NCBI GenBank assembly: GCA_045837725.1
Contig: JBEWZL010000123.1
Coordinates: 62,001-126,000 of the forward strand
From: Vermamoeba vermiformis
Lineage: Eukaryota
Length of the DNA: 64,000 nt
Direction of reading: 5' to 3'
The position numbers and the translations under genes were made by a program. Shown here piece by piece: positions 17,250 through 64,000 of this stretch (the first letter of the stretch is position 1; the number at the start of each line of letters is the position of its first letter). The notes beneath the pieces are model-generated. The model ran no database searches. It had not been told where the DNA came from and saw only the letters and a program-made list of their open reading frames with translations.

Positions 17250-19391
17250 TCAGTTTTCATATAAAACAAGAGATAGCCTTCACTGCGCAGCGCACTTTCA
17301 ACGGGCACTTGCACGACGTAATTGTCATCAGCCCAGTACCAACGATCACTGTGTCGTATATAACATGTGTAGTGCCCATTGTCGATGTTGCCAATGTGAT
17401 TTACAACTGCGCATAATTGATAGCCTTCGAGTTTCTCTTCGATTTGTTCATTGGCGGATCTGAAGACGCATCAGTTAGCAATAAGCAAAAGTGATAATAG
17501 ATAGCTACGTACTTTAATAGACTGCTGGCCATATAAGGGGACATATTGAGCTCTTCAGGGAACTCAACAAAAGTGTCAATTTTCTGACTAGTGCCGTTGA
17601 TCATTTGTTTGAACCGCTGTGACAGGTGTTAGCGCTATAGTAATAATAATATTCGGCTGTATATTGAGTACCTTGACATGAAAGGTGAGTATGCGCGGCA
17701 AGGACTTGAAAGACATCTGTTTGATAGACTCTTGATATGAATTACAATTTGTACATTTGATTTTTTGATCGCTGCCCAGTGACTCAGCTTGTGTGAATCT
17801 GATAGGGGTGTTAAATGATGCGTATAATATATAGATACGTACTTGTTGAGACAGTCCCATAGTGTGGTCATGCCTGCTTCAGAATCTTCTTCGTCATTTT
17901 TTTCTGCGAATAATACGAATTAGCACGAGAGCAGTACTGAGTGACTATGACGCTCTTACTTCGCTTTTTGAGCTTGGGGAAGTCCAATGACACGTCGAAG
18001 AATGGCTCGTACGTGGTCGATTTGTTGTTGCAGTGTTTGCAGGTCAGATCTGAGCGCATTGACCCGCTGAATAGCCGATGAATTATACATTGACAGTCAT
18101 TTGCCGAACCTGCAGGTGTCAGTTAGAGCGGCACTAGGGGTGTGATGTGACACGCGTACCTTCACAGTGCGAGTGAATGCCATCGAGACACGACATTAAG
18201 AACTCGTGTGCATCTTGTTGGTCATAGCCAGCCAAGTTGAGACTGTACTTCCAAATACTGTACATCTGTAGTTAGCAGTCAAGGAGTGATAACAGAGTAT
18301 AATAGGGGTGTTAGAGTGGCAGTTAGGTGCATCAACAGGATACAAAGTGGTGCGGTGAGAATGGAGTGGTGGCCCCGCTGAACATAGTGGTGAATATAGC
18401 GTCCATTTCACAGCCGAGACAGAACTGCTCGCGCTTGTTCTTGGTGACGGCACACGTGAGGGGATTGTGTTTGTCTGACAGGAAGTAGTCGCGCAGTTCT
18501 GGCAAGTGCACGAAGGTCTGTAGAATGCAGTTCATGAAGCACGTGTTGCCCATGTTGTAGAGGCCGCGCAGTCCTGTGGCAAGGTGCCAGGTGAGCTGCG
18601 TGTGAAACAGGTAAGTAGCGTGGTACTCACCAACATTCTGATTTGAGATGACGAGCCGTTTGGAGGCTGTCTTCAGTTCATCGAGGTCGCTAGATGTAGG
18701 CTGCCACACAGCACTCGGCGTGTCAGTCGCTGGATCTGCATTGAAGAGCGGTTAATTGCGCGGATCAACCGACCAATGCCACTGACAGTCAATGACTTAC
18801 CAACAACTTTCCGTCGCTTGGACGCGTGTTTATTATATTCTATTTGTGGTATTATGTCGAAATCAACGTCGTAAACGTAATCTTTGCACAGATGGCAGTA
18901 GATCTCGTTCACCGTGCCGTCCACAGCTTCAAAAAATACAACAAAAAAATCAGATTTAAGAAAAGTGGAAAGTTTCGATGAGCCATAATAAATTAATAAA
19001 TAATTTAATGCCAAATAATTTTCTTACCGAAGACGTGTTTCGTTTTGTCAAAGTGTTCGCGGATGTGTTTGCCCTGCCAACAGCCAATAAATACACAATG
19101 CAAACAGTATAAAAACCGACTGCCACCACTCTTGAAGCCACAAATATGGCATTTGGGGATTGGGACCTGCTATAATTATTGAGTTTTTGCACGTCGAATT
19201 TTAAACTTGTGATCTAGCTTGCAAATCCATACCTTTGTACGGTCGGATGTAACGGACTTGTATGATTTGATATAATTTACAACTGATTTATAATTTTGAC
19301 TGATTGCCTCTTTGTGTTCCTTCAGATGGGGGCAGCCTCGCCCAGGTACTGTTGATTGACTTGCACAACACTTGGTGTCCTCTAAATCCAT
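17250..19391 (-). CDS. USP22: SAGA deubiquitinase USP22/Ubp8 (multi-exon)
   Basis: ZnF-UBP (CPHL..CLHCVFIGC..IYCHLCKDYVYD), GLRGLYNMGNTCFMNCILQ Cys box, GYDQQDAHEF, His box GHYTC..W...DD, EGYL..YE. Confidence 0.92.
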
Positions 19392-25751: not shown

Positions 25752-27395
25752 CTAGTTGAGTACGTACTTGATGGTGAGATAATTAACGTCATTGAAGTAC
25801 ACTGATGAGCTCATTGTCACTGCGTTGTAGCTGCTAGAGCCACCGAACACGACAAGCTTGTGCGTGTTGCCTTCAGAGTTCCAGTGCGAGACTGTGTGGA
25901 AGCCACGCGGCTGGAATGTGCCCGAGACAGCAGGCTGATACCACGCACCTTGCTCACCAATGCGCGGGTCATAGATGTGCACCTCATTCAAGTGCGTGTT
26001 GCCGCGGTTAATGCCACCAATCAGCACCAACTTGTTGTCCACAGCCTAATGCAGCAGTGTCAGTAGCTGTCGTGCAATCACTTGTTGTGCAGTACTCACC
26101 GTAAGGGTCACAAAGGAGCGCGCCATTGGTGTGCGACCACTGCCTGTCAACTTCTTCCACTCCATCTTGCCTGTGACACGTGTCAGTCTGTGTCCTAGTT
26201 GTACGAACAACGCTACTTACCGAGATCCAATTTGTACAAGTCGCTCGTGCGCTTCTCCTTGTCCTTGCCGCCGAACAAGTAGATTTCATTGCTGTTCAAT
26301 GCTGCCATACCATAGCCTGCACGAGGTGTGGGTGCTGTGCCGATAGTGCTGAGCTGTGACCACTCGTTGGTGCCTATTTGACACGTGTCAGTACGTCGCT
26401 AGTCACTCAATGACAGGTGTCACTTACGAGTGTCAAATGCGTAGAGATCACCGAACCAGTCGAACAGCGTGGCAGGAGGTTCTTCTTCAGACTCGTAGTC
26501 GTCAGGGTTCTCCTCCTCGCCCTCATTGTCTGCTGCGTCCTCCTCGTCAATGCTCTCTTCTTCGTCGTCCTTCTTCTCCTTGTTGTTGTTGTGGCTGTCA
26601 GTCTTCTTGGGGGCAGGGGTCTCATCGCCTTCTTCTTTGTGCTCCTCGTCCTCCTGGTCCTCGCCGTGTTGATACGGCATCTTGGGCACGACACCCTTTG
26701 GAGGTCCGAAGCCACCAAAGATGTAAATTACTGGCCCAACCGCGACTGCTGTCAACTTGTCGCGCGGTGATGGCGCAGTGCCCTTGGCAGCGATCTTCTC
26801 CCACTCCAATGTGGCTGCACTTGTCGTCAGTACGCGTACTTGTGATATCAAACAGCGCCAATACCGCTACGTACTCAAATTGAGGGCCACGACGTCACTC
26901 AACCAGCCGTCCTCGTTCATGCCATTCAGCACGTAGAGCTTGTGACCGACTTGCGCGAATGCAGCACCACTACGAGTAGCGGGCAAGAACGAGTCGATGG
27001 GCAGATCTACTTTGGACCATTGGTGCTTGTCTGCAGTTACCGTTAGAAACACGTTGACACGACAGGATCCGCAAAATTAATTGTACAATTGAATACAATA
27101 ATGCAAAAATAATATGAAAATTAATGTTAAATAATAAGCAATATTTACCTAAATTAAACGAATAGACTGCGTTGGATTGACCAATGCTCTTGTCGTTATT
27201 TTGAATGGCACCGCAGCAGATAATAAGGTTGCCCTCAGATATAGCTGCGCAATGGCCTTCACGTGCAAGAGGCACATTGTGGTTCGGATCTACTTGGTTG
27301 TGTGGTTGGATGGTAGCCCATTGCGCGGTGAAAGTGGTGGGCAATGGTGTAGCGAGAGTGCTAGGGTCCTCGGGGCCTGAAGGATTGTTACCCAT
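25752..27395 (-). CDS. Kelch-repeat protein with acidic loop and possible N-myristoylation (multi-exon)
   Basis: Repeated PR..H..GG..ND/SD kelch blades; MGNNPS N-terminus; ~60-aa D/E-rich insert. Confidence 0.85.
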
Positions 27396-28715: not shown

Positions 28716-29128
28716 AATTGCAATGAATATATGATACTACTGAGGTGTGCTCTACTAAGGGCTGGCTGGCAAATAAGGTGCTAATAATATATAAATAGAT
28801 ATTAGTTGTGCTCGCGTCAGCAACTTGTTTATTTGAAAAGTCCATTTACATTTTCTACTCTTTCACGGCCATTGCCTAATTTGGATATTGGAGCACGTGA
28901 CTTGGCGCCCTCCACCACGATATTGAATCACGCTCCTCGACCACGAACATATGTTACTCTGAAGGGAGGAAAGGCAGCTGATTGGCCAATCCAATGCAAT
29001 CAGTTTTGTAACTGAACGGGCACTGACAAGTTAGTGTCGCCGATTGGTCAGTTGAAGCACGTGCCCTGTGATTGGTCAGTTCAGTGACGTGCTCAGCGAG
29101 TGTCTGATCACCCATGCCTCTCGTGCGA

Positions 29129-30341
29129 CTAGTAGTCCTCGCGCATTCGTTCACCACCGCGCTCCACTCGTCTGGTGCCAGTGCTGTGGTGAGCACGTGA
29201 CTGGTACTGATCACGTGACGGACCACGTGATTGTCCACCAGGGCCCTGCACTAATCTTTGCAGTTGTGCCCGCTCTTCATTCTCCCTGGCCATTCTTTCA
29301 CGTCTCAATCGTTCCAAGGTCTCGAGTTTCTGCTGCTCCTTGTCCTTGCGCTTGTCTTTCTTGTCCCTGTGCTTGTCCTTGTGCCGCTTGTCTTTGTGCT
29401 TCTTCTCTTTGTCGCTCTTGGTCTCGCCCTCGCTCTTGCTCTCTCGCTCTTTGGCTCTGATCTTCTCTTCCATTGCGCGCTCTTGTCGCGAGTTGTCGAG
29501 TTGTGCCCGCACCACGGCGAGTTGTTGGTGCGAGGGACGTGTCAAGGTGTCACTGGTGGACTTGACGTGCAGGTACTTGTTCATCGCACTCAACGGATCT
29601 GCTTCGCTCTTCCTCCGCTCCATGCGCTGTTGTTTGGCCTCGCTGATCTCACTCGTGCCACCCTCGTACCAGGGCTTGTTTTCTAAATTAGGCTAGTCAG
29701 TACCACATCTCACGAGGCATACTAGTCAGTTATTAGTACTCACTCGTATACTCGCTAGAACTCTGGCCTAGATACGTTGTGAATTGTCTATTCAATCGCT
29801 CTTGTTTCGCGCGCTCTTCAGCTTCGTGTTCGGGATTTGTTTGTTTGCCAGTACGACTCAAGTCTACCACTTCACCGTTCTCTTTCTGCTAGATGTAAGG
29901 AATCACTCGTATTAGCATTAAATATGTTACTCACTGCCTCCAGCTCTGGAAATAAATTGAAGTGTTTCTGTTCTTCAGGCACATCTGACTTCTCAGTGCT
30001 GTTTCCGGTGAATAGTGCGGCAATAGTTTCAGCCGAATCAGCTGTGTTGCTATTATGTGTGATTTTTTGTCGTTTCAATCGCTCGAGGCGTGCTTCTTGT
30101 TCCTACGAACGAAGATCCAAATCAATAAAATAATTCGAATAATATTTTCTAAATTACAAATAATTCTCTATGCATTCTAATCATCAAATTGTATTTTAAT
30201 ATGGCGATATTTCCTTACATAACCTAATTTGCGCTTTTTCTCTTCCCGCTCTTTCTGTTCATGCTCGCGCTCGTCTTTGCGCACCTTGTCAATGTTCTTC
30301 TGACTATAAGGATTCCAACTCTTATGTGGCAGTAAGTGCAT
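29129..30341 (-). CDS. LENG1: LENG1-like (Cir_N domain) protein
   Basis: MHLLPHKSWNPYSQKNIDKVRKDE, HFNLF, KPWYE, DPLSAM..YL, LERLRRERMARE..ER. Confidence 0.8.
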
Positions 30342-30463: not shown

Positions 30464-32036
30464 ATGAATGCTATCAGTACCTCATTAATAAGACGTATAT
30501 TAACGCGAGCCCGAAGTCCCACACATGTACTCTCGCGAGGTAAATAGTTCACTCAGATCCAGGGCGGGATCTTACTACTACAAATTCTGTTAATGCAGCC
30601 AATATTTTTAATATTATTGCCCATGCATATACTATTATATTTAATCCAATTATTGATCCTACGATGCAGGGCTATTTAAACAAAATTGGATCAACAAACG
30701 ACGCTCTTCCACTACACGCACGCCTGAACAAGTACGTGGTATAATGACAATACAGCTTAATTAATACACCTATGATCAGATGGCCTATATTCAACGACTA
30801 GTAGCGCCGTTGTCACCGCGCATCCAGCTCGCGGAAGTAGCAGGAGCAGGAGTGAGTACACAATGACAATGAGATGATAGCCCTAATATCACAACTAACT
30901 GGCGGCTAGGTAGGGCTGGTGAGTGGCACGCACTTCAACCAGGGCCAAGAACTGTTCAGTGAATCGCCGCACGTGCTGGCCCCCGAGGTAAGTGTGGCCT
31001 GTGACGCCATTGGTCGCTGATCACGTGACAGTACTCGCACCACAGCGACATCTGCGCGCACTGCTTGACACCGCTGAGCACTGTCAGTCAACAAGTGACA
31101 CGTGTCACTGGCCAGCCCGTGTCAGATGTAATGTCACAGCTCGAACAACAGCTGCAGGTCCTCTACCAGGGCCACTATGCCACCACACACGCGGAGTGTC
31201 AACACTGTCACGTGACTTATTGTTCCGCTGCGTGTCAACAAGCCGCGTGGCGTCAGTACCATCACGTGCTGTGTGAAGGACCGCGCAGTGACAGGTCCGG
31301 TACAAGTGTCAAAGCCCGCACTGCACTCGCTGACCGAGCACGCGCTGATTCAATGATTGCATTTATTTCGCGCATCTTTGCTGAAATTGCACTGCGCTAC
31401 GACAACACACTGCGGAACAATCCAGCGCTGATCGATCAGTCCGAGCACGTGTTCAATCACGTGGCCGAGCACGTGCTCAATTTGATGGCATTTAAGTTTG
31501 AACACGCCAAGCAATTCACTGAAAATGAGTTTTTCACTGAACGACTGGCGCTGATCGAACAAGCACTGCGAGAGGCGCAGACGAGTGGCGTGCTGCAACA
31601 CGTGCCAGCAATCTCGTACGGGAGATTTGTGCTGCTGTATCTCAAAGTGAATCTCAACTACCTCACCGCCTATTCGCTCACTGCGCCCGCCACACTGCTG
31701 CGCGACAACGAGCACCTGAGCGCGGCCCTGACACAGCTGCAAACAGCGCTCTATCGTGAACTCACACAGGTGCCGAGTGCCCTGGTAGAATATTTGCAGG
31801 GCTCTGGACCAGGGCTGTATCCGACCAGTGCGCTGCTCAATCACAGCTGCAAACCTTCACTGAACGCGAAATTTGGACTCAAAGGCCAAGTCACGTGGAC
31901 TGCAGCACGTGATCTGCCACCGAACACGCCACTCACCATCGCGTACGTGGATCCGACTCTGTCACGTGATGAGCGGAACAATTATTTAAAGGCTCGACAT
32001 TATTTTTCATGCGAGGGCTGCACGGAGTGTGACTGA
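30464..32036 (+). CDS. SET-MYND (SMYD-like) lysine methyltransferase with possible mitochondrial presequence
   Basis: GVGLVSGTHFNQGQELFSESP, CAHC..CQHC..YCSAACQ..W..YH..LC, GLYP..LLNHSC-x-P, AARDL..LTIAY, YFSC..C..C. Confidence 0.85.
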
Positions 32037-32220: not shown

Positions 32221-35103
<2,883 letters not shown>

Positions 35104-38440: not shown

Positions 38441-39359
38441 TTAGTGGTGAGTGAGCTTGGCGTCGCCAAAGAGACGTTGTCTGATCTCAGGCAGCGCGAC
38501 TTCAAAGGCGTATTTGAGTCGCATATCGAGGGTGTTGTTCACCATGATGCGACCTTCTTGCGCACTCAGCACCACACCACCAGCGCATGTCTCTTGACTG
38601 GCACCAGAGGGCGTGGCAGGAGCGAGGAAGTGCTTGACATCGAGTGTGAGCTTGCAGTCCTTCTTCTTGAGTGCTTTGTACTCTTGTTCGGCTTGGGACA
38701 GCGCGGCCTCCACCAGCGACTTGTCTTCTTGACGGCAACGCACTGAAATGGCGGGCTCGTCAATCTTGATCATACCCTGCACGAGTGATAGTGATTAGAT
38801 CGAATATGTCTCGATATTTGACTTATTATAATCAGTGTGGCAGATCGTGCATCCGTTATTATTGTCAATCTAGATTTACCTCGACCAACAATCGGCGCAA
38901 CAAGGTTGAGTATTGTTCAGTGTTTTTGGTGATAGAAGATAATTGGCTGCTAGCCTTAGTAACTGCGGCTTGAACAGCCTCTTCTTGGGTCTTCAAGATG
39001 CGCAAGCGAGATTTGTTGACTTCGTTTGAGAAAGCGCTATTATATAATTATAATTAATATAATATAATTAATGTTAATACGTATAAAATGGTATTAATAA
39101 CACCCACGATTAATTATAATTAAACGAAGAAAAAAACGTTACAAAAAGATAATTACATTTTCTTTTGGACTTCGACCTCTTTCATCTTTCGCTCAAATTC
39201 CTTCATTAACTTCAATTTTTGTGCTTGAACCTTTTTGGCCTTTTCAATGGTGAAGTCCTCCTCGGCCTTGGCTAAAATTTCTTCAGCCTTCTCTTCAGCT
39301 TCCTTCTTGATGAAGCTGACCATGTTTTCGAGTTGTTTAGCAACTGCTGCGTCGTTCAT
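38441..39359 (-). CDS. ATP6V1E1: V-type ATPase subunit E (3 exons)
   Basis: MVSFIKKEAEEKAEEI..EEDFTIEK; CAGGVVL..GRIMVNNTLDMRL..LPEIRQRLFG. Confidence 0.96.
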
Positions 39360-39740
39360 TTTTGTGTTATTTGTGAGTAAATGATACTACTGTCTCCTTC
39401 ACCACTGAATAAATACGGCAACAAATACCCGATCTGGAGTGTTCGTGTCGGTTTTCGTTGGTTTGGCTGAAAATTTTTGGCTCGTTTTTTTTGGCTGAAT
39501 TTTTTTGAACGAGCGAACCTAACTTAGAAATTCACAAAATACCAAGCTCTTTGCAACAATAGAATCAATTTAATAGAGAACAAGTATATATAGTGGCTCA
39601 CTGTATTTATTTATTTTGTTCTTCTTAGTTTTGTTTATTTGTGTCTTTGACACCAACTAAAAATTATACGGATCAGCAACTTCAAACACAAAAAAGTTAC
39701 AAAATATTCATTATCACACTATCAGACCGTATTTATTTGA

Positions 39741-42700
39741 ATGAGCGATATCCGGTATGTCATAAAACTATGATGAATAATTTAAATAAAAAGCATATCA
39801 ATTCGGATTGTGGCTTACCATCCTCCTTTTTTCTTGCAGTATTGATAGGGCGGTTCTTACCGTCAAGGAAGATAGACCAGCTAGAACATCTTCTCCTATT
39901 GGTATTAATGCCCTTTCGCCAAAAGAAGACGCAGTATTTAAACGAGAGGTTAGTAGCGGCAAATCCGCTTGATCACACCGTATTTTCTAATTCCCCTCGT
40001 TGCAGGACACTTCTCGTAAGTTGTATTCTCCAATTGGCTCACCTATGACCGAGAATACAGCTGCAGCGAATGACGGCAGCTTCTTCAGCAACAAACAGGC
40101 CCCGCATCACATTATGGGTTTATTTGGGTAAGTATCTATGCTTAAATAATACGCCACTATTTGAATAATAGCGTGCTAAGTACCTTAACAGTGGAACTAG
40201 TCACCAGTCAAGCATGTTTATTCGATCTCTTTCTCCTGCAACGAATCTTGGTCCAAACGGGAAAATAGGTAATTGATTGGTTTCATGGTTGCATATTATA
40301 GTAGTGTTGCTTATACTTACTCGAGATTTTCTGTAATTTCTTGATTCCGTTTCAATTTCGCTTCAAAAGACCTCCGCGTGTCCGTCGGTTGAACAAACCG
40401 ATGCCAATTGTGTAACATCCTTTAAAAAAATACTAATATGCTTGATTTATTTATTAGATGCGTCAAATCAAGCAGTTGTGCAGATCAACGACTTGGATGA
40501 AGCAACAAACGAAGATATCGCTCGGAGTTTGCCGGGATTAAGTCCGATGAATCCCATGAATCACGTCAACAAGATAAACAATGCCAAGCGCTTCGAACCT
40601 CCACGACGTCGAGCGATGAGCCTCGTAGGTACTGCAGGGGACAGATTTGCAAACTCGGACTGGAGCTTCGATCCGAACAACTTTAACAACGGCCAAAACA
40701 TACCATATGACCATCAAGTCTATTCTCGATCTATTGAAGCGAACAATCCATGGAGCAATGCCAATGTCCAGCAACAAGAGTACTATCAATACAACAACCA
40801 GCAGCAATATTACAACGAACAACAATATCGCGCGCAACAGCAGCAGTATTATCATATGCAACAACAGGCCTATCAACAGCAGCAACAGCACCACAATTAT
40901 CAGCAAGAATTGTCCGAGCAAGACGAGTGGATCACAGGCATGGGTGGCATGGACTTTGAGAACAGCACTGACAATCAGCCCAAATATGGTCAACACGTGC
41001 CTGGATTCTACAACGCCAGTCTCATGTCCTATCAGCACCGCACTGACACTGCCAGTCCGCAGCAGAGTCCGCGCTATGCTCCTGGCGTGACACGTGTCAC
41101 CAATCAAATGTCAAATTTGACACTCAACCAGGGCTCGCACCTGTCAACTTCACCAAATTATTCCGCACAGTCCCCAGCTCCCACCACCACAAGCACAACG
41201 AGCTGTCTCGTGCTCGGCGTGGGCTTCAGATCTGGCTGGATGGGTCCGCCCACTGGTCCTGCCAGTCGCTCGCTGCTCATCTACAACTTGCCGCAGGGCA
41301 TTCTGTTCACGGCTGCGCACAGTTACACGGCCATGTCGCGCTCAGGCTACGACCCCTCGACGAGCACCATGACCCTCACGGCCTCCACGTCCTCGTCCAC
41401 CACACCGAGCAGCACACCGCCCACCACGCCCTCCTCGTCCACGGCACAAAGTCCTATGATGTCGCCGTTCAGTTCACCGCGCATGACCTCCATCAATGCC
41501 CCGATGCTGAACCTCTCCATTGTGAATGCTGAGTCACTGACCTCGAGCTCGCCGTTCTCCCTCAACGCCAGCACTTCAGTCGCCGATCAGCTCATCTCGC
41601 TCTTGCTCAACTTTGGACCGATTCGCTCGTTGCAGTTCTCAGCGGGCAACACCAAGACAGGCATGAACAGCAGTCCTGGCAGCGAGCTGTTCAACAACAG
41701 TCCCTTCTTGATCGTGTCGTACTTTGACATTCGACACGCGCAGAATGCTGTCTTACATTTGCACGCGTGCAACTTCAAGAACAAGAAGCTCGAAGTGCAA
41801 TACTTCTTCCCCAAGGACTACACCTCGCTCAAAGAACAGAATCAGGGCACACTGGTCATATTCAATCTCGATCCCAACACCTCCAACGAGGACCTTAAGA
41901 GCATATTCGGCGAGTACGGCGAGATCAAAGAGATTCGCGAGTCACCGAACAAGAAGCACAAGTTCATCGAGTTCTACGATGTGCGCGATGCTGAACGTGC
42001 GATGAAGTACTTGAACAAGAGCGAGGTGAAGGGCAAGAAGATCAAGATTGAGCCCTCCAGACCTGGTGGTCCGCGCAAGAACATGCTGCATCAACTCACG
42101 CTCGATGTCGACGATGACTTGCAGACCCCGCACGCAGTCACGCCCAACAGCAACGCTGTGCCCGCACCTGTCCCTGCCCCTGCCGCCAACTATCAGCTCT
42201 ACCAGGGCAATGTGCACTATCCCAACTACGCGCCCAACACTGCCCCGAATTATTCTGCGGTGCGGGAACCCGAAGTGTTGAAGCCGTACTCGCCACTGCC
42301 CGACAAGCAGTACGCGACCCCGAACTACGCGCACCACAACAGCTATCACGCGACTGGACTGGTCCCGAACCCGAATCCACTCATTGCCCCGAATCCTAGT
42401 GCAGCCAATCACGTGCCAGCCAAGCCTTTCACCAATCACAGCGCAGCTCCGTCCAATCCGCTGTTCTTTGACGGCCCAGGACTGTTCTCACTCACCCCGA
42501 GCATCAGTGCTGCACCCAATCCCAGCACCGAGCACGTGCTCAATGCCAGTCTGTTGAGTGCCTCGCCACTCGATGTCTTCTCGTCACGTGATCGCAGTGA
42601 GTTCAAAGCACCCTCCAACACCGCGTCACCTGTCAAACCTGCGCCGAGTCACGCCACTGACGGTCAGCCGAGTCCGAGCGAGCACGTGCCCGCACCCAGC

Positions 42701-44170: not shown

Positions 44171-45326
44171 TTAGAACTTTGGTTTGCGTTGTCTGCCAGT
44201 ATATTTCGTGTCTGGCTTGACGCTCTTGCCTTGACGACGCTGACGTTCTTTTTTGAGCAAGATCCAGTCCCTGCTCTTCACTGAAGGACGGTGCTCACCT
44301 CGCTTGCGTTCTCGACGACTAATGATACCATGTTACTACACGCAGCACACTACCAATATAGGCCTCGCTACATACCGATCACGTTCGAATTTGATGCCAA
44401 TCGGATCCTCTTCGTCCACACCAATCGGACGCGGCATCTCTTGTGTCGGCAACATGCCCGCGAAGAGCACTAAGAAGTACTTCTTGGCGCGCGTCGAGTG
44501 CGGGAAATCAACCACCAAGCCACCTTGAAAGCCCTGACGCATGGCCGAGGAGGTGAGCAGCTCCATTTGCTGCGCGTTCTCAGGATAGACCTGCAACACC
44601 GCACGGGCCCCGCGACTGAGACTGGCGTAGAGTGTCTGGAAGAAGCGATTGATGCGCTGTATGGGATTGTTGGCCTTGCTGTCGGCATTGCACAGCCACT
44701 GCAGCGCCGAGACACTGATGGCTCCGTCGAATGTGCCGGGTCTAGTGCAGCGTTAGATCTGAGGTGCAATGGCAATGGCGTCAATTAATTCGCGCAGTAC
44801 GTGCCTGAATGAGAGACCGTGGCCCATGTCCCACAGCATCAGATCTTCGTTCTTGCTGCCCTCGCGTTGTGCGGCAATCTCCAGCATCGAGGGGGCAATG
44901 TCAAGACCTACCCAGACGTGACCCAGTTCAGTCAGTACATTGCCACTCAGACCAGATCCGCAGCCAATGTCCAACAAGAAGAGTGGTGGGCTGTCTTCGG
45001 GGATATTTAAGAGTTCAACGCATCGCTTCGTCATTGCTGTTTGAATTTCAATAATACGCGAGCTATTTACCCAAAATTAATACAGTGCACGTTTAATTGA
45101 AGGTAGTGAGAAATAACTTCGAATAAATTTTAATAATTAATTAGATCCGCGTAGTATTTTGCCTTGTAATGCCGAGACCACCAATAAAATAATACGTACT
45201 TTGATGTATATTTTCCTGCTTCATCCTCGTTGTAAAACTGTTAACGAAAATTAGATCGCGATCTGATTCGAAAAGAAACGATTAACATACGATTTCTGGC
45301 GGAGCTAAATGCTCTGGTCTTGACAT
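44171..45326 (-). CDS. BUD23: 18S rRNA m7G methyltransferase BUD23/WBSCR22
   Basis: [47 protein letters not shown]-x-GGLVVDFP, [14 protein letters not shown]. Confidence 0.96.
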
Positions 45327-46976: not shown

Positions 46977-48380
46977 CTACTTGACGTCAATGCTCGCGCC
47001 TGTCAGCAGCGCATGGAGACGTGTCTCGCGGTTGAGGTGCTCCTCTTCGCTAAATGCGGACTGTACAGTGAGCACGACACGTTCACGACCATCATTCACA
47101 TCATCCGTGTCGTCTTCCATCTCTTCAGCTGCTCCTTGCGAGTTCTCTTCGCCCTCTTCTTTCTCCTCGCCTTCGTTGGTGCGCTGCTTGCTCTCTTCGC
47201 GCGCCTTCTCTTCAGCAGTCACAGCTTTGGTCTTCTTCAAGTAGACCGTGGAGTTGATGGGCACGTAGCTGATGTGATCGTCGCGCGTGATGAACATGTA
47301 GTCCTGCAACAGCTCGCTCTTGTGCGACTTCTCGTACAAGTACTCGCGGATCCACTGATACTCCATCTCACTCTCCGCTTGATTGGTGTTGTTGTCGTCA
47401 GTTCTTTGACGTTTGCGCGGTGCCAAGTAAGCGACGAATGAACCCCCCATGGCGTCTCTGAAGCCCTTCAAGAGTGCGTGCTGCATCATGTACTCCTGGT
47501 CCTCGGCTGACACTGCCACTGTGCGCTTGCGTTTCTTGCCGACCTTCAAATAGCTCGGCGTGGGGTCACTGTCAAACACCACCTCTTGATAGGTGTTGGG
47601 CCACAGTTCAAAGTCTGGAAACACGTCGTACACTTCCACTGGCGTCAGATGTGGATCCAAGGGATGCACTGGGGGCTCTTGCGCTGCTTGGAACGAGAGC
47701 TCTATATTGGCCTTGATAGTCTCCAGCGAGGGCATGTTCTGCAGCTCGCGATCGAGGGCAGATTGCGCGTCATCTTCGAGGGCCTGCAGCTTGTTGCCTG
47801 CCATCTTGTTGTGGCCCTCACCACCCAAGTACACCGTGCGACGCAGCCAGGGCACGACAGGCTTGGACTTGGAGATCATGCGACTCGATTTGTCCGCGCC
47901 ACCGAGCTCGGCACTCGTCGGCAACAAGGCTCGATCTGCCTCCAAGAGCGCACTGGACCAGTCCTTGCGATTGAATGCTGTGTAGGTCAGGGGGTCAGTG
48001 AGATCTATTTCAGAACCACGTGCTTCAATCGGCAAGTCGTGCGTCCACTTCTCTTCGAGCGTGGTTGATTTGTATGCGACGTGCGCGCGCAGATCTATCG
48101 GCACGTAGAGAAATTTCAGGTCAAATGGCAGCTCTGGGGGCTTATTTGTATATTGTAAATCTATGTGAAACTCTGTTTTGCCTGTTTTGGAGCTAACGAT
48201 ATTGTTAGTTATTGTGATAGCAGATCTCAAAATATTCATTTTTTAAAAAATCTTAAAAATCCTCAAATAATTATTTAATTACTGCCATATGAAAACAAGT
48301 ATCAACATGCGTCGTTAAAATATAATAATATACCTAGGCATTGTGGACGATTTGTCATTTTGTTTTGTAGATTGAGCCAT
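46977..48380 (-). CDS. PAF1: RNA polymerase II-associated factor 1 (2 exons)
   Basis: YTNKPPELPFDLKF, YKSTTLE, VPWLRRTVY, HP..PVEVYDVFPD, VVFDSDP, YQWIREY. Confidence 0.92.
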
Positions 48381-48449
48381 GACTGGTAGTGGCTCGCAGC
48401 ACTAATCAGAGGTGTATATGAATATGCTGCACATGTTCTGAGTGCTGTC

Positions 48450-50257
48450 TTGTGTTCGTCAAGTCCACGCGCCAACAACACTATTTTACTGCAGCTGAGT
48501 ACCGATCAACACAAACACAAACAAGGCACACGGTTGATTAACCGACAATACGATACTCATATTGCATATACAGCATGGCGTGTTAATGTGGCACTCAGAA
48601 TGTCCCTCATATCAGCTACAGTAATTTCAAAGTCCAATTTATTATTATAATTAATAATTTGCGCAATATCATGATGTATATTACAAACACCAATTTCCTC
48701 GAATAATAATAGTGTGACGTGGCACTAATGCGACATATTTAATTAGGAGCTCTGGACGAATGTGTCGCGTGCGTGCCATCGTGCCGCGCAAGGATTGGGC
48801 AGCAGTCACGTGACGCGCACCACACTGCAGATCACGTGTCAGGGTCAGGTGACACTCTCACAGCTCACTGGCACCTGGCACGACTATGTGCAGCAATTGT
48901 TCCGCACTGAACACGTGACTGAGTGTGAGGTGCGCGTGTTAGTTGCAGCCCTGATCGATCACGTGCTCAATGACCACCGCGCGCGACACGTGACTGATGT
49001 CATTGCGGGATTTCACCTCGCGAATCAGATTGCGCAGACTTTATTGCCAAATTTAGCAACCACGTGGGATCACAAGTCACCAGTGATTGGTCCGCACTCT
49101 CTGTTGACAGCCGCACTGAGCTGGACACGTGACACGAGTGACAGGTGTCAATTGGAGGATTGGATTCAAAATCTCGCGTTGAACACTTTCCGTGCAGTGT
49201 TCAGACCTCAATTACCATTTATGGAAAGAGTCAGATTTGTGGAAGGTGTTGGCAAATCATCACGCGACAGTGCAGTGCTGTCAGGGCTATTAATAGACAA
49301 GTCTCCCAGTGTCACATTGCCACCTGACACTCTGATGCATGACGCGCGTGTCATTGTCGTGTCTGCAAATATGCACGGAATGCGTACCAAGACACGTGTC
49401 AAACAGAGTGTCACAGTGGAGTCTGATCTGTCACGTGCTCAACAATTGGTCACGTGGTTGACACGTGCAGGACCACGTGTCATTCTGTGTGCGCAGTGGG
49501 ACATTCCCAGTGACGTGCTGTCACTCATTCGACTGCACAATTTCACTGAACGACATGTCAATCAGCGACCTCAGTGGATACTCGCGTGGAGTTATGTGCC
49601 TGGTGATCTGCTCGAGGATATTGCCTTATATAGCAACTGTCACATTGTTGCGCACATTGATCTCGACACCGATCTCGCACTTCCATTTATAGGCACTGTC
49701 GAACAGGTCGGTTGACGAGGGGACTTGAGCGTATCATTGATTAACTTGCCTAATTAGGTCATGGAATACCCCTTGACGCCTGAACGGGCACTGTACTGGA
49801 TGTCATCGCCGTCACGTGGTGCATCGTTGACGAGTGTGGTGGTACGCATGACACTCATTGCCAAATAAGGTAACTAATCCGTGCACAGATTAGAGGACCA
49901 TCACATGCCACACGTCAACATGTCAAACAGCAGCTTGTGTCACATCTGTCACGACTAGAACGTGTCATCGTGTCACGTGCCAGTACGCCACCAACAGCCC
50001 TGCTCGATCGATCGGAAGCCAAGTTGTACGAATTGTTGCAAAGCTACTGCTACGAATCACGTGATCCACAAGTGCTCGCACACGCCACCGACATTCGAGC
50101 TTGGTCACGTGCGCTGCTAAATTTGGTGCCTGACGAGCTCACCACTGATCTCCCCTGTCACGTGACAGTTGCGGAGAAAATTGACAGCTACACGCGAGCC
50201 ACGGAACTGGCGTGTCAAATTCTAAAAATAGATCAAGGCGTGGTGTACAGCGAGTAA
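48450..50257 (+). CDS. Divergent chaperonin-like protein (BBS6/MKKS- or BBS10-like); start codon uncertain
   Basis: GKSSRDSAVLSGLLID, VILCAQWDI, LLEDIALYSNCHIV and terminal EK...ATELACQILKID resemble group II chaperonin-like BBS proteins. No ATP-binding GDGTT motif is visible. Confidence 0.45.
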
Positions 50258-50297: not shown

Positions 50298-53200
50298 TCA
50301 ATGACGACGCGTGCGGTTCTCGAGCCGTTCAATGGCACTCACACCGTCCACCAGCTTGGTGCGGAACACGACATTGGCGTTGTTGAACATGCCCTCTTTG
50401 AGCGACACGACGATGAACTGCGAGTGCGTGAAGTGCGTGCGCAACATCTGACCAATGTTCTGCGTGTGCGAGAGATCGAGTGCCGAGTCAATCTCGTCCA
50501 GAATGTACATGGGTGCGGGCTTGAACAAGAGCAGCGCGAGAATGAGCGAGAGGGCCAGCAGCGACTTCTGACCGCCACTCAGCTCCGACAGACTGTCCTT
50601 CCAGATGCGGCGTTGAGGGTCGAAGGAGACACGCACCTCGAGTCCGTCCAATACCGTGCCACCCTCGGGCGGAGACAGCTGCGCGGTGGCACCAGGCAGC
50701 AGTGTGCCGAAGATGCTGCCAAAGTCCTTGTTGACCTTCTCGTGCGTGACTTTGAGTGTCTCGTTCTTGCGCTGATCGAGCTCCTTGATGACGGCACTGA
50801 TCTTGGCCTTGTCGTTCTGCACGATAGTCTTCTTCTCGAGCACATCTTGGTACTCTTGCTCGGCCTTGGAGAACATATTCATCACCTTCTTGTTGATCGT
50901 CTTGGCCAGTCTGTCCTGTTCCTCTTCCATGTTCTTCAGCTTGAGCTCCACTTGCTTAATGTCGCGGTTGTTGAAGTCGTAGTCGGTCTTGGGCTTGCCA
51001 AAGAACTGCTTCTCATTCGCAATCCACGCGTGTGACTCGAGCAGCTGTTTGTAGCGCTTTTCAGCCCCCTTCTTCTTGCCGTGGTGACTGCTGATGCGAT
51101 GTTCGAGGGTCTTGATCTGCACATCGTGATCGGCAATCAGCGTGGTCTGCTTGTCGCGTTGCATCATCAGCTCGCCAATCGTCTTGTCGCACTGCAAGAA
51201 CTTGCCGCGCTTCTTGTCCGCGTGCTTCTTGAGCTGTTCGTACTCGCTCTGCTTCTCTTCGAACTGCGCGGCACACTTCTCGACATCGCGCTGCAGCTTG
51301 TCAATCTGTGCCTCGAGTGCCGCGACTTGTTGCTGAGCAGTGCGCAGTTCAGCAGTCAGCTCTTCAATCTCCGACTCCAACTTGATCACGGCTTGTTGCG
51401 TCTTCTTCACGCGCTTGGTCACCTTGTCCAATTCAGCGCGCGTCTTCTTCAGCTGTTCTGCAATGCGCTTCAGTTGCGTGGCCTGATCAAAGTTGTTGAG
51501 CAGCTCTTCCAACTCCTCGCAGATGCGCGTGTTCTCTTGCTCGCGGACTGCGGCGTCTTTGATCAGCTGTTCGTCCTCGCGAATCACGCGCTCCAACTCA
51601 GCCACACGTTGCACGAGCTGATAGTGCTCCGTCTGAGCAATGCGTGCATTGAGCAGTTCGAGGGCGTGTGAAGCGAGTTCAATCTCGTGCTGCACTCCTG
51701 CGTACTTGGCTTTGAGCTCAGCACAGCGCGCAATCTGCTTGTCGAGCTCACGGCCCTGCTCTTCGTGTTGATGCAGCTGATCTTTCAACTGCTGCAGCTC
51801 ATTCAAGCGCACCAACAGCGCACCTTGTCCACCCTGATTGATCGAGCCACCCGTGAGTGTACCTTGTGGATCGAACACATCGCCCTCCAGTGTGACAGTG
51901 CGCGTCATCACTTGCGAGTCGAAGGTCACTTTCTTGGCCTGGTCGGGGCCCTGTGCCACCAACAGATTGCCAAATGCGTACTCCGCTGCAGGGGCGTGCT
52001 CGGACTTGTAGTCGATCAGACTCAGTGCGTGCGTGACATTCTCGCTGCCCACCAAGCTCTGTGCGCGCTTCAACACCTCGGCGCTGGTGACTTGACGCAC
52101 AATCTGCGAGAGCGGCACGAAGGTGACACGTTGCGCGAGTTCACCCTTCTCGAGCAAGGCACGACCAGTCTCTTGCGAGTCCACGACAATGTAGTGCAGC
52201 TTGGGACCAGCACCAATCTCGAGGGCGATGGAGGTCTTGGTGGGCTCTTTGACACGAATCAGACCCACGAGCGGACCACTGACCTTGCTGGCATCGAATT
52301 GTGGCGTGGGCGGTGTGTACTTGAAGTTGACGAGTCCTGCCAGTCTGATCGACAGGCCTTCAATTTTCTGAGGTTGCAAATGATGAGTACACGTGCGGTA
52401 TTAACGTACATCATATGACACAACTACGCACCTCTTTGACCGCTTGAATGTTGCGCTCAATGCTCTTCTTCTGCTTCAACAGCGCACTCTCCTGTTCCTC
52501 ATCGTACTCCACCAGCTGCAGCGAGTTCTTCAGCTTGTTCAGCTTGGCACTCAGTTCTGCGCGCTCAGTCTCCAAGCGCGTGTATTCAGCTGAGGCCTTC
52601 TGCGTCTGTTTGCTCTTAGTGCTCAATTCGCTCTTGTTGTGCTTCACGCGCAGTGCAGCCGATTGTTGCTCGCTGTGCGCGGCAATTTGTTGTCGCTTGG
52701 CCTCGCGGATCTGCTCTTGCAAGTTGTCACCCTGCACGCGTCCATCACCACCTGTCGCCACACCTGCTTGTGCCTGTTCTAACTGTCGCTCCAACTGTTG
52801 CACGCGGTCGCTGGTTCGCTTGCGCTCTTGCTCCTCGTTGTTCTCCTGCTCCTTGGTCTCACTCAGCTCGCGTGTCTTGGCTGCAATGGCCTCTTCGAGC
52901 TGTGCAGTGCGTCAATACTGCACTCATTATATAATGCAACGGCACTTACCTCGCGCGCACTCGCTTGCAGTTCAGCGAGTCGACGCTGTTCCGACGCCAA
53001 GTTGTCGCGCTGATTGGTGAGGGTGGTGTTGAGCTTGACCACGCCCTTGGAGACATCAGCCACTTGTCCCTCGACCTCTTTCAACTCGCCAGACATCTCG
53101 CGCTCCTTCTGCTCGCTCAGCGTGCCGATCTTGTCCACAATCTCCTTCAACTCCTCGCGCACGCGCTCTTGTTCAGCACGCAGCGCACGAATCTCCTCTT

Positions 53201-54024
53201 CTTGCTCGTGCAGCGTGCCTTCAGAGTCCTTGAGAATGCGCTCACACTCGCCGAACTCGTAGGCAATCTTGAACTTGCTCAAGCGCTCAATCTCCGTCTT
53301 GTTGGACAGCCATTGCATGTATTGCGTGCGTTCTTTGCGCAAATTCTCCAGCGTGGGCGTGATCTCTTCTTCGAGTACCTGCGAGTGGGACAGTCAGTAC
53401 TATACACATACACTGGAATCATGCAGCACTTACGCGATTGATCTCTTCGACTTTGCGGTCCTTCTTTTCAATTGTTTTGAGTGCGTTGGCCTTCTTCAGC
53501 TCGAACATTCGTGTTCCCGCCGCTTCTTCGATCATGGCCAAGATCTCTGGCGGTTTCATATTGAGAACTTTGGTAATGTGACCTTGCATAATCAAGAAGT
53601 GAGGATTGTTGACGTTAAGTTGAACGGAATGGAACAGATTTTGCACTCGGTTGAGTTGTGCATTGTGACCATTGATCAAATACTTGCTCTTGCCACCAAT
53701 AACGATCTGACGAGTGACGGTGATTTGTTCGTACTGCTCGTAGCCGACTGGCGACAATTTCTGATCTTTGTTGTTAAATACGATCGTCACGCTAGCCTTT
53801 CTGACACCAGCTTGACCTTGCTTATAGACCAATTCTTGTAAGCTGCTGGCACGCAATTGAGACCAATTTGTTATGCCAAGCACAAAGCAAATAGCATCCA
53901 CAATATTTGATTTTCCAGATCCGTTTAGACCCGTAATGGCATTGAAATTAGGGTCGAAACCTGAAATTACGGTACGATTGCCGTACGATTTAAAACCCTC
54001 GATAATAACCTCTTCAATATACAT
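50298..54024 (-). CDS. SMC2: Condensin subunit SMC2 (multi-exon)
   Basis: [32 protein letters not shown], hinge [37 protein letters not shown]. Confidence 0.97.
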
Positions 54025-54166
54025 TGTGGTGCTGTGTCGAGGAATTAAAAATAATACAAAAAAAACCGCGAAAAACTTCTTCGCGGAAAAAAAGCGCGGG
54101 CTTCCTCTGCCATTACTGCGAACAATGCAAATCGGTTACACTATTCATGTCGGTTTATTTACAAGG

Positions 54167-61294: not shown

Positions 61295-63212
61295 TTACAA
61301 GTCTGTCTGCACTCGCAGCAAGTTGTACTCGTTCTTCAGCGGTGTCAGCATTGCAAAATTGAACTCCACAGGGAATGAGCCTGGATTTACCACGTGACAG
61401 TCCTCATGTTCCGTTGTAAATTGCGTGAAGTGATCGCCCAGCAACAACTACCACACAGTTAGTCAGGTCCACGCAACACAACACCAGCGCTACTTACGCA
61501 GTCAGGGGTGGGATACAGGCGCAGGGCGTGGTCGTGGGGCCAGTAGATGGGCTGCACGGTGAGGGGCAGGGGACACAAGTGTCCGCACTCGAGCACTGTC
61601 TTGGTGAACTGTGTGTGACACGTGTCAACTATCGCACGCGACGAGTGGCTAAAAATAGACTTACGTGCTGCACAAGACTGGCCGTGTCTGCGTTGGAGGG
61701 CTTCATGACGCAGTGGCGCCGCAGTTTGTTGACCACATCGTCGCGGAACACGACCACTTCGCGACTGCCGCACGTGATGCGACACGGACTGGTGGCAAAG
61801 TACAAATTAGGCTCGGTCACGTGATCGCGTTGAAGACGCAGGCCAGACTGATTGGCGATCAGATCTTGGAACTCTTGCATGAGTGGAGCACGTGGCAACA
61901 CGCCAGGACTGCTGGGAACAAAGTCGTGAGGCCCTGGCACGATTACTACCTAAATATGGTCATGAGCACGGCTGTCGATCGATCGGAGTGCCAGCACTGA
62001 CCTTGACTTCTTTGGACGCCAGCACTTGCAACACTTTGCCTAATTGGGACATCAGCTGTGATTGTGCAGAGACAGCTAATTTTGGATCAGAAATGAAATT
62101 TCCCATGAGTACCAGCACACCAGGGCCCATGCCAGTGACACCTGTCAAAAGTGTCTTCAGCGCACTCAGCACAGCGGGCTTGTCGAGCCAGACATCGCTC
62201 AGGGCCATTATCCACGTGTCAGGCGAGCCCTTTGCCAAATTAGGTAAGTCCACAGCACGAGGCAGTCACGTGATCTTACCGGCACCGAGCGAGCAGCGCA
62301 ATTGAGCTGTGGATGCAGTGCCAGGGCCTTGCTGCGCGGTTGTGAGGGCGGATATGCCAGGGCTTTGACGTGAAATTTCTGCTCGTCACGTGACACTTCA
62401 CCCTCGACCAGCACGACGCTGTTTTCAGTGAACAGACCGGTCATTTTCTCCGCTTGACTCAGATCGAGTTCAATGTGGCTCTTGAGATCTGCGAGGAGAT
62501 TCAGTCACGTGCACTTTCCAAATTAGGCAATCGTACCCTCCAAGAAGTAGCGGCCCTCTTCGAGTTGCGTGAGTATGCCGAGCACGTACTTGGTGCCCGC
62601 AGCGCCAATGAGTGACTCAATGGGCGTCAGTTTGTAGTACTGGTGCTGATCGATGTTCGACGCGAGCACTGGCGGCTGAAACAGCGGATTCGACAGCAGA
62701 CGCTGCTGAACGGTCACGAATCGCTCGCGCAACATGTTTGTCTTGTCGAGTGCAGTGCCGTGCAGCGAGGTCGTGTTCGGTGCACTGAACAGCAGCAGAT
62801 CAGCGCTCTGACACTAGACGAGGCGTCGAGTACTTACGGATCGAAGGTCTTCTTGGTCTGATTGTAGACGTACTTGGGCAGGTCAAAGGCATTGATCACG
62901 CGTATAAAGTCCTCTTGTTCCTTGTCGTCGGAGCTCTTGCTCTGTTGCTCTACACAGCGCTCGATCGTGTGCTTGTCGATCATGCCTTGATTCACTGCGA
63001 AGAAGAGTACGGCATTATTATCATATACATCCACATATATATGTATGTATATGGGACTACGTACGCTTTTGGCTGTCAATAGAGTTCAAGATCTTATCAA
63101 TGAACTCCGTCGCATTCGGTTGTTGTTGGCACAGCTCTTGCAATACTTCAAGCGCATCTAATTGCAGCACTAAGCCACGCAATTTGAAGCTGTTAATAAT
63201 GACTTTGTGCAT
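61295..63212 (-). CDS. POLE2: DNA polymerase epsilon subunit 2 (multi-exon)
   Basis: [68 protein letters not shown]-x-[16 protein letters not shown]. Confidence 0.93.
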
Positions 63213-63539: not shown

Positions 63540-64000
63540 ATGATCAGCACTTTAAAAATCAACAAAATTGCGGCAGTACTCTCAGCACTGTGGAACAACA
63601 GCGCGGAGCTGAGCAGCTACATATCCGATGTGCAATATAGAGCTGTAGTTGCACTCTGCATGCCCACGCTGATGCGCATCCACACTCACAACACGCGCGT
63701 GCTCGGAGCACATCTGCTCTCGTTCAGTGAATTCAACTTGGTCAAACTTGGTCAACAGATGCTCGACCAGGGCCTCGTTGCACAACTGCACACACAGCTC
63801 GCCCTGGAAGAGAAGACTGGTGCCGCACTCAGCGCGGAACAATTGTTGCGTCAGTACGAAGCGAGTGACACGCGCGATCGCGTACGGTGAGTGACACGTG
63901 TCATTTGCGCACCTCCACCACTGACCTGTTTCCCAGCATTGTCATTGACGCATTGGTGCACTTGTCGCGTGAGTCAGTGCCTGACACGTGTCACAGTGCA
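63540..64000 (+). CDS. Hypothetical helical protein, truncated by the window end; start uncertain
   Basis: ORF 63540-63886, then a GTGAGT..CTGAC..CAG intron, then an in-frame open exon running to the window end. Confidence 0.5.

Follow-up and report, generated by a model that had tools for sequence, protein, structure and literature searches.

The DNA considered here raises the question why a single six-letter palindrome, CACGTG, should be packed into the coding sequence of one eukaryotic gene. The gene, which we call the focal gene, is a divergent chaperonin-like gene of the Cpn60/TCP-1 family with 477 codons (48600..50257, plus strand), and it lies in 64,000 nucleotides of Vermamoeba vermiformis DNA (contig JBEWZL010000123.1 of assembly GCA_045837725.1, positions 62,001 to 126,000), referred to below as the window, in whose coordinates all positions are given. 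From the letters alone it had been predicted that about 1.4 kb of this gene contain 17 copies of CACGTG where about 0.35 are expected, that the copies use all three reading frames and shape the protein, and that they resemble HIP1, the highly iterated palindrome of cyanobacteria, in accumulating wherever selection is weak. The count is right: 17 CACGTG are found in 48800-50170, with starts running from 48807 to 50159 and every coordinate that had been listed present. All of them are within exons (48807..50164), five in frame 0, nine in frame 1 and three in frame 2 of the spliced coding sequence, and they encode the peptides HV, [T/S/P]R and TW/TC, so the use of every frame and the imprint on the protein are real. 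The explanation towards which we lean, while stopping short of calling it probable, is that the copies serve as docking sites on duplex DNA for proteins that bind as dimers, and that selection on the nucleotides maintains them as arrays within gene bodies. All statistics come from this one 64-kb window and from a single orthologous locus in a relative, and the counts behind the conservation tests are small; the sets of open reading frames (ORFs) and introns are heuristic. As ORFs we took stop-to-stop frames of 100 codons or more, choosing the longest ones that do not overlap, and some of these may not be genes.

The expectation of 0.35 agrees with a base-composition (order 0) model. Richer models raise it to 1.8 (order 1, dinucleotide) and 3.5 (order 2), and 17 is still above both; in 2000 dinucleotide shuffles of 48800-50170 itself the mean was 1.78 and the maximum 8. 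At orders 3 and 4 the expectations for the same segment are 10.3 and 17.1. The whole window behaves in the same way. It contains 87 CACGTG against a dinucleotide-shuffle mean of 22.8 (standard deviation 4.5, maximum 36), none of 100 shuffles reaching 87, and the Markov expectations at orders 0 to 4 are 13.5, 22.0, 24.6, 40.4 and 67.3. The excess shrinks at orders 3 and 4 because these models are trained on the pentamers of the motif itself, 87 of the 130 CACGT in the window being extended to CACGTG, and in the case of the focal gene they are trained on only 1.4 kb. CACGTG is the commonest hexamer of the window, with 1.36 copies per kb, and the four most frequent 8-mers all hold the CACGTG core.

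The excess does not depend on codon usage or on reading frame. Permuting synonymous codons within the focal gene gave a mean of 5.4 CACGTG (maximum 12 in 5000 runs), shuffling the order of its codons gave 1.4 (maximum 6 in 5000 runs), and redrawing its codons from the usage of the window gave 3.1 (maximum 8 in 3000 runs). Because 17 exceeds all three controls, residue order and synonymous codon choice must both be bent towards CACGTG. The orthologue in the relative repeats this result with 11 CACGTG against 3.96 under synonymous permutation and 1.02 under codon shuffling, and none of 500 permutations reached 11 in either control. The 53 other ORFs of the window together hold 49 CACGTG, again above synonymous permutation (21.8, maximum 33 in 1000 runs) and codon shuffling (11.7, maximum 22 in 1000 runs). 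Thus the excess survives codon shuffles and is not confined to one gene, and on both counts the original prediction stands. Since all frames are used and both kinds of codon control are exceeded, the excess must arise at the level of DNA (or RNA) and not by way of the protein.

The excess is also specific to this motif. The inner tetramer ACGT is at expectation (255 against 235-253), and so is CpG (observed/expected 1.01), which gives no sign of heavy CpG methylation. Palindromic 6-, 8- and 10-mers that lack the ACGT core and are not AT-rich occur at 0.93-1.10 of expectation, which excludes a general palindrome-making mutational process such as template switching or cruciform formation. A few single palindromes are in excess, namely GATCGCGATC (3 against 0.13, at 24947, 45254 and 55458), AACATGTT (8 against 0.8-1.5) and CAGATCTG (7 against 1.3-3.3), while the class as a whole is not enriched.

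What surrounds the core is far from random. A purine occupies position -2 in 146 of the 174 half-sites, the flanking dinucleotides GA, GT, AG and AT make up 110 of the 174, and the preferred context is purine-N-CACGTG-N-pyrimidine. The longer palindrome that had been noted, TGACACGTGTCA, is present at all eight places named for it, in introns as well as exons (26174, 26379, 31096, 34051, 41088, 61616, 63892 and 63982), against none in shuffles. It is better written as the 12-mer TGACA-SG-TGTCA, of which there are 13 copies, eight with CG at the centre, three with GG and two with CC. Inverted TGACA and TGTCA half-sites are found solely with a 2-nt spacer and never with spacers of 0, 1 or 3-8 nt, and the everted arrangement is found once, also with a spacer of 2, as TGTCACGTGACA near the 3' end of the focal gene (50156..50167). 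The GG/CC form, TGACAGGTGTCA, is letter for letter the consensus selected in vitro (SELEX, systematic evolution of ligands by exponential enrichment) by human MEIS3, a TALE homeodomain protein, as given in the available text of PMC5449588; five of the 13 copies in the window are identical to it and the other eight have the CG centre instead. Graded flanks together with a tolerated central S are typical of protein-DNA recognition. The flanks are also more alike than chance allows, 44 site pairs matching at 12 or more of 20 flank positions against 13.9 in a position-wise shuffle (0 of 200 shuffles reach 44), and 50 stretches match TGWCACGTGWCA within two mismatches against 13.6 expected. The CACGTG sites fall into several extended sub-families and do not follow one matrix. 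An asymmetric extended form, GATCACGTGAC, was seen in seven copies (8359, 29209, 31019, 42583, 59018, 61816 and 62265).

The sites are clumped by gene. Long ORFs contain 64 of the 87, predicted introns contain eight, and DNA outside ORFs contains 22 against 3.9-7.2 expected (10.1 under an order-3 model), six of these being in AT-rich surroundings, although AT-rich spacers are otherwise almost free of the motif. The variance/mean ratio of the counts per kb is 3.2 and 28 of the 64 kb-bins in the window have no CACGTG, so that an even or quasi-periodic spread is not seen there. Several long ORFs that have no Pfam match, among them 5867-7768 and 12788-13732, have none at all. Besides the focal gene there is a second saturated gene, with a SET domain (23.5 bits) and a MYND-like zinc finger assigned by eye (SMYD-like; 30970..31968, plus strand), which has 12 CACGTG. 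Ten of these are within ORF 31029-32033, against 3.7 and 0.7 in the codon controls; a copy of the 12-mer is also located in the gene, at 31096, and three of the CACGTG (31446, 31458 and 31470) follow one another at intervals of exactly 12 nt. The two neighbours of the focal gene served as negative controls. PAF1, upstream (46980..48242, minus strand), has one CACGTG, and SMC2, convergent and downstream (50298..54135, minus strand), has one in 3.8 kb.

The sites are kept between species beyond background. Two loci of one related species were obtained from a metagenome scan (L001 and L002, identical where they overlap), and the gene order is the same, PAF1, the chaperonin-like gene and SMC2. Exons are 78% identical between window and relative, and introns barely align. 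The focal protein evolves faster than its neighbours (identity 74%, against 83% for PAF1 and 94-99% for SMC2), while overall synonymous codon identity is similar across the three genes (0.61-0.71). All 11 CACGTG of L001 are in the orthologous gene; there are none in its PAF1 or in the recovered part of its SMC2. Of the 17 sites in the window 10 are kept in L001, compared with 365 of 1377 exonic hexamer windows (26.5%; binomial P=0.005), and conversely 10 of the 11 sites of L001 are common to the window and one is private to L001. The conservation is not that of the residues, since amino-acid identity at motif codons is average (31/43 against 296/396 elsewhere, P=0.71). It is seen at synonymous positions: where the residue is kept, the codon is also kept in 26 of 29 cases within motifs and in 188 of 287 elsewhere (P=0.0065), and when the comparison is made with the same codon types outside motifs in the focal gene it is 26/29 against 47/78 (P=0.0044). 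Flanks that changed stayed in the preferred set (GA to GT and GT to AT, read from the alignment), and the 12-mer TGACAGGTGTCA within the focal gene (49139..49150) is conserved in the relative at position 2478 of L001. Motif-compatible peptides, among them HV, TRV, PRV and SRD, are common to most of six protein relatives in an alignment read by eye, which points to an array that is old and stable and not a drifting by-product. There is thus no support for an accumulation of the motif wherever selection is weak: the sites are clumped, long unmatched ORFs are empty, all sites of the relative are in one gene, and the residues that the motif encodes are as conserved as any others.

Individual losses were also seen. 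At 49126 the TRD encoded through CACGTG has become TCD or TCN separately in two protein relatives (P0122 and P0125), a change of Arg to Cys, and in L001 the same place reads CATGTA, a C-to-T change at the central CpG. In P0121, from a 99%-identical strain, the site at 49451 is lost by a Thr-to-Ala change. Decay or rescue of sites through CpG methylation was considered as a cause and set aside, as CpG and ACGT are at expectation and two of eight interspecies site differences are CpG transitions, so that there is no signal either way.

How might these features fit together? On the explanation that we tentatively prefer, CACGTG and TGACA-SG-TGTCA would be recognition sites on duplex DNA for at least one putative dimeric, sequence-specific protein of the amoeba, the geometry of the hexamer being that of an E-box (bHLH/bZIP-type) and the geometry of the 12-mer that of a TALE-homeodomain dimer site. 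In some genes, of which the fast-evolving chaperonin-like gene would be the clearest, many such sites would have been built into exons in every frame and into very short introns, and purifying selection on the nucleotides themselves would hold them in place. The gene body would then double as a homotypic binding-site array, a regulatory or chromatin element, and the array would skew codon choice towards CGT, TCA, CCA and GTG and peptides towards HV, [T/S/P]R and TW/TC. What the data show is the excess, its independence of frame and codon usage, its specificity to this motif, the strict half-site geometry, the clumping by gene and the conservation at synonymous positions; from these we infer the binding of a protein, the kind of protein and what the arrays do. 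If the arrays are indeed binding sites they would be an extreme case of coding DNA that carries a second, protein-docking code, in which one word takes about 7% of the length of a gene, governs which codons and dipeptides are used and is retained from one species to another. A compact protist genome would then provide a convenient setting in which to study how the same bases satisfy regulatory and coding constraints.

Several observations weigh against this explanation. A density of 12 sites per kb in coding exons and a four-fold excess over the window are far above what selection on transcription-factor sites usually produces, and such density points to a more pervasive force. CACGTG is absent from the 5' intergenic region of the focal gene (48243-48599) and from all three of its introns, which would be odd if the array regulates the chaperonin-like gene itself. 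The flanks are more symmetric than independent half-sites would make them: 19 of the 87 sites have perfect palindromy over 10 nt against 10.1 when half-sites are re-paired (P=0.004), and there are 12 perfect 12-mer palindromes against 4.4, so that several factors, or selection for self-complementarity, would be needed. Half-site words are enriched in the saturated genes too (TGACA/TGTCA 30 against 6.0, GTCAC/GTGAC 22 against 4.2), and single half-sites should not be bound well by a dimer. The synonymous effect is not significant when the four core codons alone are used (16/18 against 87/126, P=0.098), and the conservation tests concern one gene in one pair of species. Among the 34 ORFs and exons of the window that were scanned, no bHLH, bZIP, homeobox or methyltransferase gene was seen.

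An alternative is a process like that of HIP1. Here a methylation-, repair- or gene-conversion-linked process would make or restore CACGTG from near-matches, coding sequences would be reshaped as a by-product, and the copies would have no function of their own; such a process accounts for the density of sites and we regard it as possible, though doubtful. In its favour, no hexamer of the window is more frequent than CACGTG, which is found in every frame, in introns and in DNA outside ORFs, and which exceeds both codon controls in other ORFs (49 against 21.8 and 11.7). Further points for it are saturated genes full of one-off and half-site versions (50 against 13.6), as birth and decay of sites would leave them, the pair of 20-nt units at 48951 and 49423 that are 90% alike and are read in different frames, and the fast evolution of the focal protein. 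Conservation beyond background, also at synonymous positions, is another; the available text of PMC13756078 states conservation for HIP1 as well. But that text describes HIP1 as quasi-periodic, whereas the amoeba sites are clumped by gene, and long unmatched ORFs and AT-rich spacers are almost free of them. The motif codons are not at less conserved residues, and a drive should leave more turnover than the single private site among the 11 in L001. Flank preferences and a central S that is tolerated resemble the degeneracy of a binding site and not the fixed word of an enzyme, and CpG is not depleted. In its full form, as a eukaryotic counterpart of HIP1 in which a DNA-level system (methylation, mismatch repair or biased conversion) creates and restores both CACGTG and TGACA-SG-TGTCA, and in which the word then moves into tolerant genes and introns, is kept from species to species and alters proteins, we judge this alternative rather unlikely. 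If true, this would be, in the literature searched, the first case of a HIP-like element from a eukaryote and a handle on an activity of DNA modification or repair. A further alternative is a mobile mini-element, the sites being remnants of a tiny palindromic unit, like a miniature inverted-repeat transposable element or a double hairpin, inserted in frame into genes and introns. The similarity of flanks (44 pairs against 13.9) and the 15-21 nt units that recur within the focal gene would suit it. However, no two sites agree at 16 or more of 20 flank positions, the flanks of the eight TGACACGTGTCA copies are unrelated, the introns that carry 12-mers are not homologous to one another, and no relatives were found in viral contigs. 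Moreover, the protein of 477 residues is not longer than the Pfam model (490 positions) and has no inserted blocks when compared with orthologues. A mobile origin is thus close to excluded and we give it very little weight.

A role in RNA would move the selection from duplex DNA to the transcript. The self-complementary CACGUG and UGACACGUGUCA would pair with each other or with the regions of the branch site and 5' splice site, and would thereby affect how the introns of about 50 nt are spliced, how the mRNA folds or how RNAs associate; this we hold to be improbable. It is favoured by the 12-mers themselves, about half of which are in short introns, either right after the donor or over a branch-like ACTGAC and the AG; by the complementary halves found at opposite ends of some introns; by arrays that stop at the borders of transcription units; and by folding of exon RNA, for which z was -2.98 and -2.17 in two saturated genes (none of 20 dinucleotide shuffles was as stable) and +2.20 in the SMC2 control. 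These z-scores are modest, come from 20 shuffles each and are expected of any sequence rich in palindromes. The three introns of the focal gene are without CACGTG, sites are present in AT-rich non-coding DNA, and the symmetric flank rule with its fixed 2-nt spacer fits RNA pairing less well than duplex DNA bound by a protein dimer. Since a palindrome reads alike on both strands, CACGTG cannot be used to compare sense with antisense; the half-words are only mildly biased to the sense strand (TGTCA 21, TGACA 8), partly through avoidance of TGA stops. There remains the view that CACGTG is a by-product of composition, generated without constraint on the word itself because a few genes of low expression have an uncommon make-up of residues or codons. 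The saturated genes are indeed poor in K and E and rich in H, C, W, T, R and V (35% against about 20-25%), their GC content at third codon positions (GC3) is lower (0.49-0.53 against 0.67-0.74 in neighbours), and the excess does shrink at orders 3 and 4 (window 87 against 40.4 and 67.3, focal gene 17 against 10.3 and 17.1), though for the reason given above. Against this, 17 sites remain in excess of 5.4 with the protein and codon set kept and of 1.4 with the codon set alone, the relative repeats the result, sites occupy three frames and introns, and synonymous positions inside the word are preferentially conserved. Composition alone is therefore close to excluded, and we consider it most improbable.

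Comparison with known systems bears on the two leading explanations, of which binding sites for dimeric proteins will be taken first. The CACGTG core is bound by USF, MITF/TFE, Cbf1 and Pho4. The amoeba sites resemble such E-box and G-box sites of bHLH-ZIP and bZIP proteins in the core, in the symmetric flank preference and in spacings of 11 and 12 nt, about one helical turn, which were seen five times. They differ in that E-boxes and G-boxes occur singly or in small groups in promoters and enhancers, whereas here 64 of 87 are in long ORFs, at up to 12 per kb and in three frames. With none in the 5' spacer of the focal gene, the original view that this is not ordinary promoter use of E-boxes is borne out. 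TALE proteins exist in Amoebozoa. Like a TALE-homeodomain dimer site of the form TGACAGGTGTCA, all 13 copies of the 12-mer are inverted TGACA half-sites with a 2-nt spacer, and five are identical to it; unlike the MEIS3 site as far as it is described, eight of 13 are CG-centred and hence are also E-boxes, and about half are in 50-nt introns beside splice signals. In mammals, exonic transcription-factor sites that constrain codon choice have been called duons, but duons are scattered single sites for many factors and the amoeba has one word in dense homotypic arrays in few genes. DNA uptake sequences (USS/DUS) of Pasteurellaceae and Neisseriaceae are over-represented, largely coding and bias peptides; they are, however, bacterial, not palindromic as such, tied to competence and evenly spread, none of which holds for the amoeba sites. 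A GACACGTG-type half-site is part of the consensus of the bHLH protein HES5 in the available text of PMC5449588.

HIP1, GCGATCGC, is described in the available text of PMC4390886 and PMC13756078 as occurring far above expectation, in any frame of coding DNA as well as outside it, as conserved between orthologues above its surroundings, and as probably tied to recognition at the level of DNA and not of protein. As far as this description goes, the amoeba palindrome shares, within the window, the excess, the use of any coding frame and of non-coding DNA, and the conservation between orthologues; it differs in belonging to a eukaryote with introns, in having a 6-mer core with graded flanks and sub-forms in place of one fixed 8-mer, in being enriched only about four-fold as a hexamer, and in being clumped by gene and not quasi-periodic. 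The likeness to HIP1 that had been proposed therefore stands for conservation beyond background and for indifference to frame, and fails for the spread. In the literature searched, supplementary files excluded, neither CACGTG nor the 12-mer is described as a genomic feature of amoebae. Work on E-boxes there concerns animals, plants and fungi, HIP1 is reported in cyanobacteria only, and the papers that mention both Vermamoeba and CACGTG are, by their titles, on other topics. Whichever explanation is correct, the motif marks the genome of a widespread environmental amoeba, a host of giant viruses and bacteria, with a strong signature that is easy to test for.

A separate question, on splicing, is raised by the introns of about 50 nt, at whose splice signals about half of the 12-mers are located. 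Five of the 13 are within the 59 predicted short introns (3254 nt, 5.1% of the window; P=0.0003), and two more (63892 and 63982) are in probable introns at the end of the window. In a Kelch-repeat gene on the minus strand, a 50-nt intron (26171..26220) has a 12-mer at 26174-26185 over a branch-site-like ACTGAC and the 3' splice site, and a 54-nt intron of the same gene (26374..26427) has two, at 26379 (centre CG) and 26411 (GG/CC). These two introns were checked by reading the protein across the junction; across 26171..26220 this gives, by eye, a continuous Kelch repeat. A 52-nt intron of a cullin gene (34041..34092, plus strand) has a 12-mer at 34051, and spliced reads skip these 52 nt in all three RNA runs, which makes it the sole 12-mer-bearing intron confirmed by RNA reads. 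The other two are predictions: a 56-nt intron (61609..61664, minus strand) with the 12-mer at 61616 adjoining the 3' splice site, and a 50-nt intron (63887..63936, plus strand) with the 12-mer at 63892 directly after a GTGAGT donor. The 12-mer at 63982 follows another GTGAGT, and there the window ends. Predicted introns (e.g., 36116-36167, 26374-26427 and 63887-63936) are mostly 44-73 nt long; their donors read GTAAGT or GTACGT and their branch-like sites ACTGAC or ACTAAC. TGACAC is often right after the donor or part of the branch site, and some introns, such as 18110-18159, have TGACAC and GTGTCA at opposite ends.

The structure of the focal gene is as follows. Its exons are 48600-48620, 48747-49706, 49758-49841 and 49889-50257, separated by introns of 126, 51 and 47 nt, and the exon joins match orthologues of 474-476 residues, residue for residue, across both junctions. 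The large exon alone scores 33.4 bits with Pfam PF00118 (Cpn60_TCP1), for which the gathering cut-off is 34.3, while the full-length orthologues P0122 and P0123 score 48.6 and 44.2 bits, so the label chaperonin-like that had been given to the gene is justified. The protein collection contained six relatives at 74-99% identity, two of them full length (474 and 476 residues); P0122-P0126, at 77-87% protein identity, entered the comparison as proteins. A profile made from the seven sequences of the family found no chain in the PDB at E<=0.01, which indicates a very divergent member of the chaperonin family, and by eye the usual chaperonin nucleotide-binding motif does not appear to be present in the protein. 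Its neighbours in the ESM Atlas are phage Cpn60-like clusters (0.91-0.92), taken here solely as confirming the family. A viral origin of the two saturated genes was considered and rejected, as no relative was found in viral contigs. The DNA of the gene is supported by a contig from a DNA run (1451 nt, spanning 48555-50017, seven letters different). The gene and SMC2 are convergent, their stop codons (50257 and 50298) being about 40 nt apart, and consequently their 3' untranslated regions must overlap on opposite strands.

The window as a whole is gene-dense eukaryotic DNA with introns of 44-73 nt, and spliced RNA reads skip 51-59 nt with GT..AG ends. Pfam matches in it include a DEAD helicase, Rad21, Sdh5, a UCH protease, a PCI protein, Nop14, Kelch proteins, cullin, Sec5, V-ATPase E, Mei2-like, Csm1, PAF1, SMC2 and WD40 proteins. 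The cullin exon is 97% identical to a protein whose 90% cluster includes a EukProt entry for Vermamoeba vermiformis, and the next named relative, Acanthamoeba, stands at 59%, so by its proteins the DNA belongs to V. vermiformis or to a species very close to it. The three RNA runs are from a diverged strain, with reads mostly 95-99% identical to the window, and were mapped with a 95% cut-off. RNA depth was 0-1.5 over the focal gene and about 0 over 30.4-32.4 kb in the three runs, and no joints for the introns of the focal gene were among the RNA joints listed. Low depth over saturated genes may be mapping loss, because the strain is diverged and the cut-off is 95%; depth is therefore not used as evidence for low expression and no conclusion on expression is drawn. 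The available text of PMC11702301, which does not mention the motif, reports that the genes of V. vermiformis span an unusually wide range of GC3, a result which it attributes to regional mutational bias; this is compatible with the gene-to-gene heterogeneity seen here.

Smaller groups of sites are found elsewhere in the window. Nine CACGTG lie over ORFs with no Pfam match at 61391..62511, with 12-mers at 61616 (in an intron) and 62136; four lie at 29058..29229 in or beside a K/E/R-rich ORF on the minus strand (29129-29692), three of them in the ORF against 0.96; and four lie within 280 nt in the linker between two RRM regions of a Mei2-like gene (42410..42688, plus strand). An exonic 12-mer is found in a Mei2-like ORF at 41088..41099. 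Other words keep company with the motif. The palindrome TTCA-S-TGAA has 11 copies (1812, 30955, 31515, 31533, 31856, 36381, 36397, 44277, 49542, 62424 and 63723) and co-occurs with CACGTG-rich stretches, the SET/MYND-like gene or its immediate surroundings having four copies and the focal gene one. The 10-mer GCGGAACAAT, counted on either strand, has six copies, mostly in CACGTG-saturated genes (31219, 31412, 31973, 48896, 56228 and 63834), which suggests that the saturated genes share a wider vocabulary of words.

Apart from the motif, CCGG is strongly depleted across the window, with 25 copies against 189.5 from base composition, 97.7 at order 1 and 67 at order 2; CCCGGG has no copies and GCCGGC two, and GATC (326 against 223) and GTAC (242 against 171) are enriched. 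A site-specific cause of the depletion of CCGG, such as modification or avoidance of a nuclease, is conceivable. Unusual RNA joints were also seen. In 45062-45203 a non-canonical joint with CT..TT ends skips 140 nt and has three extra letters between its sides in two of the three RNA runs. In the highly expressed V-ATPase E region (39009-39362) several joints connect opposite strands, the one at 39206/39309 having 13+11, 9+5 and 18+13 reads in the three runs; these may be library artefacts at an inverted repeat, or they may be real.

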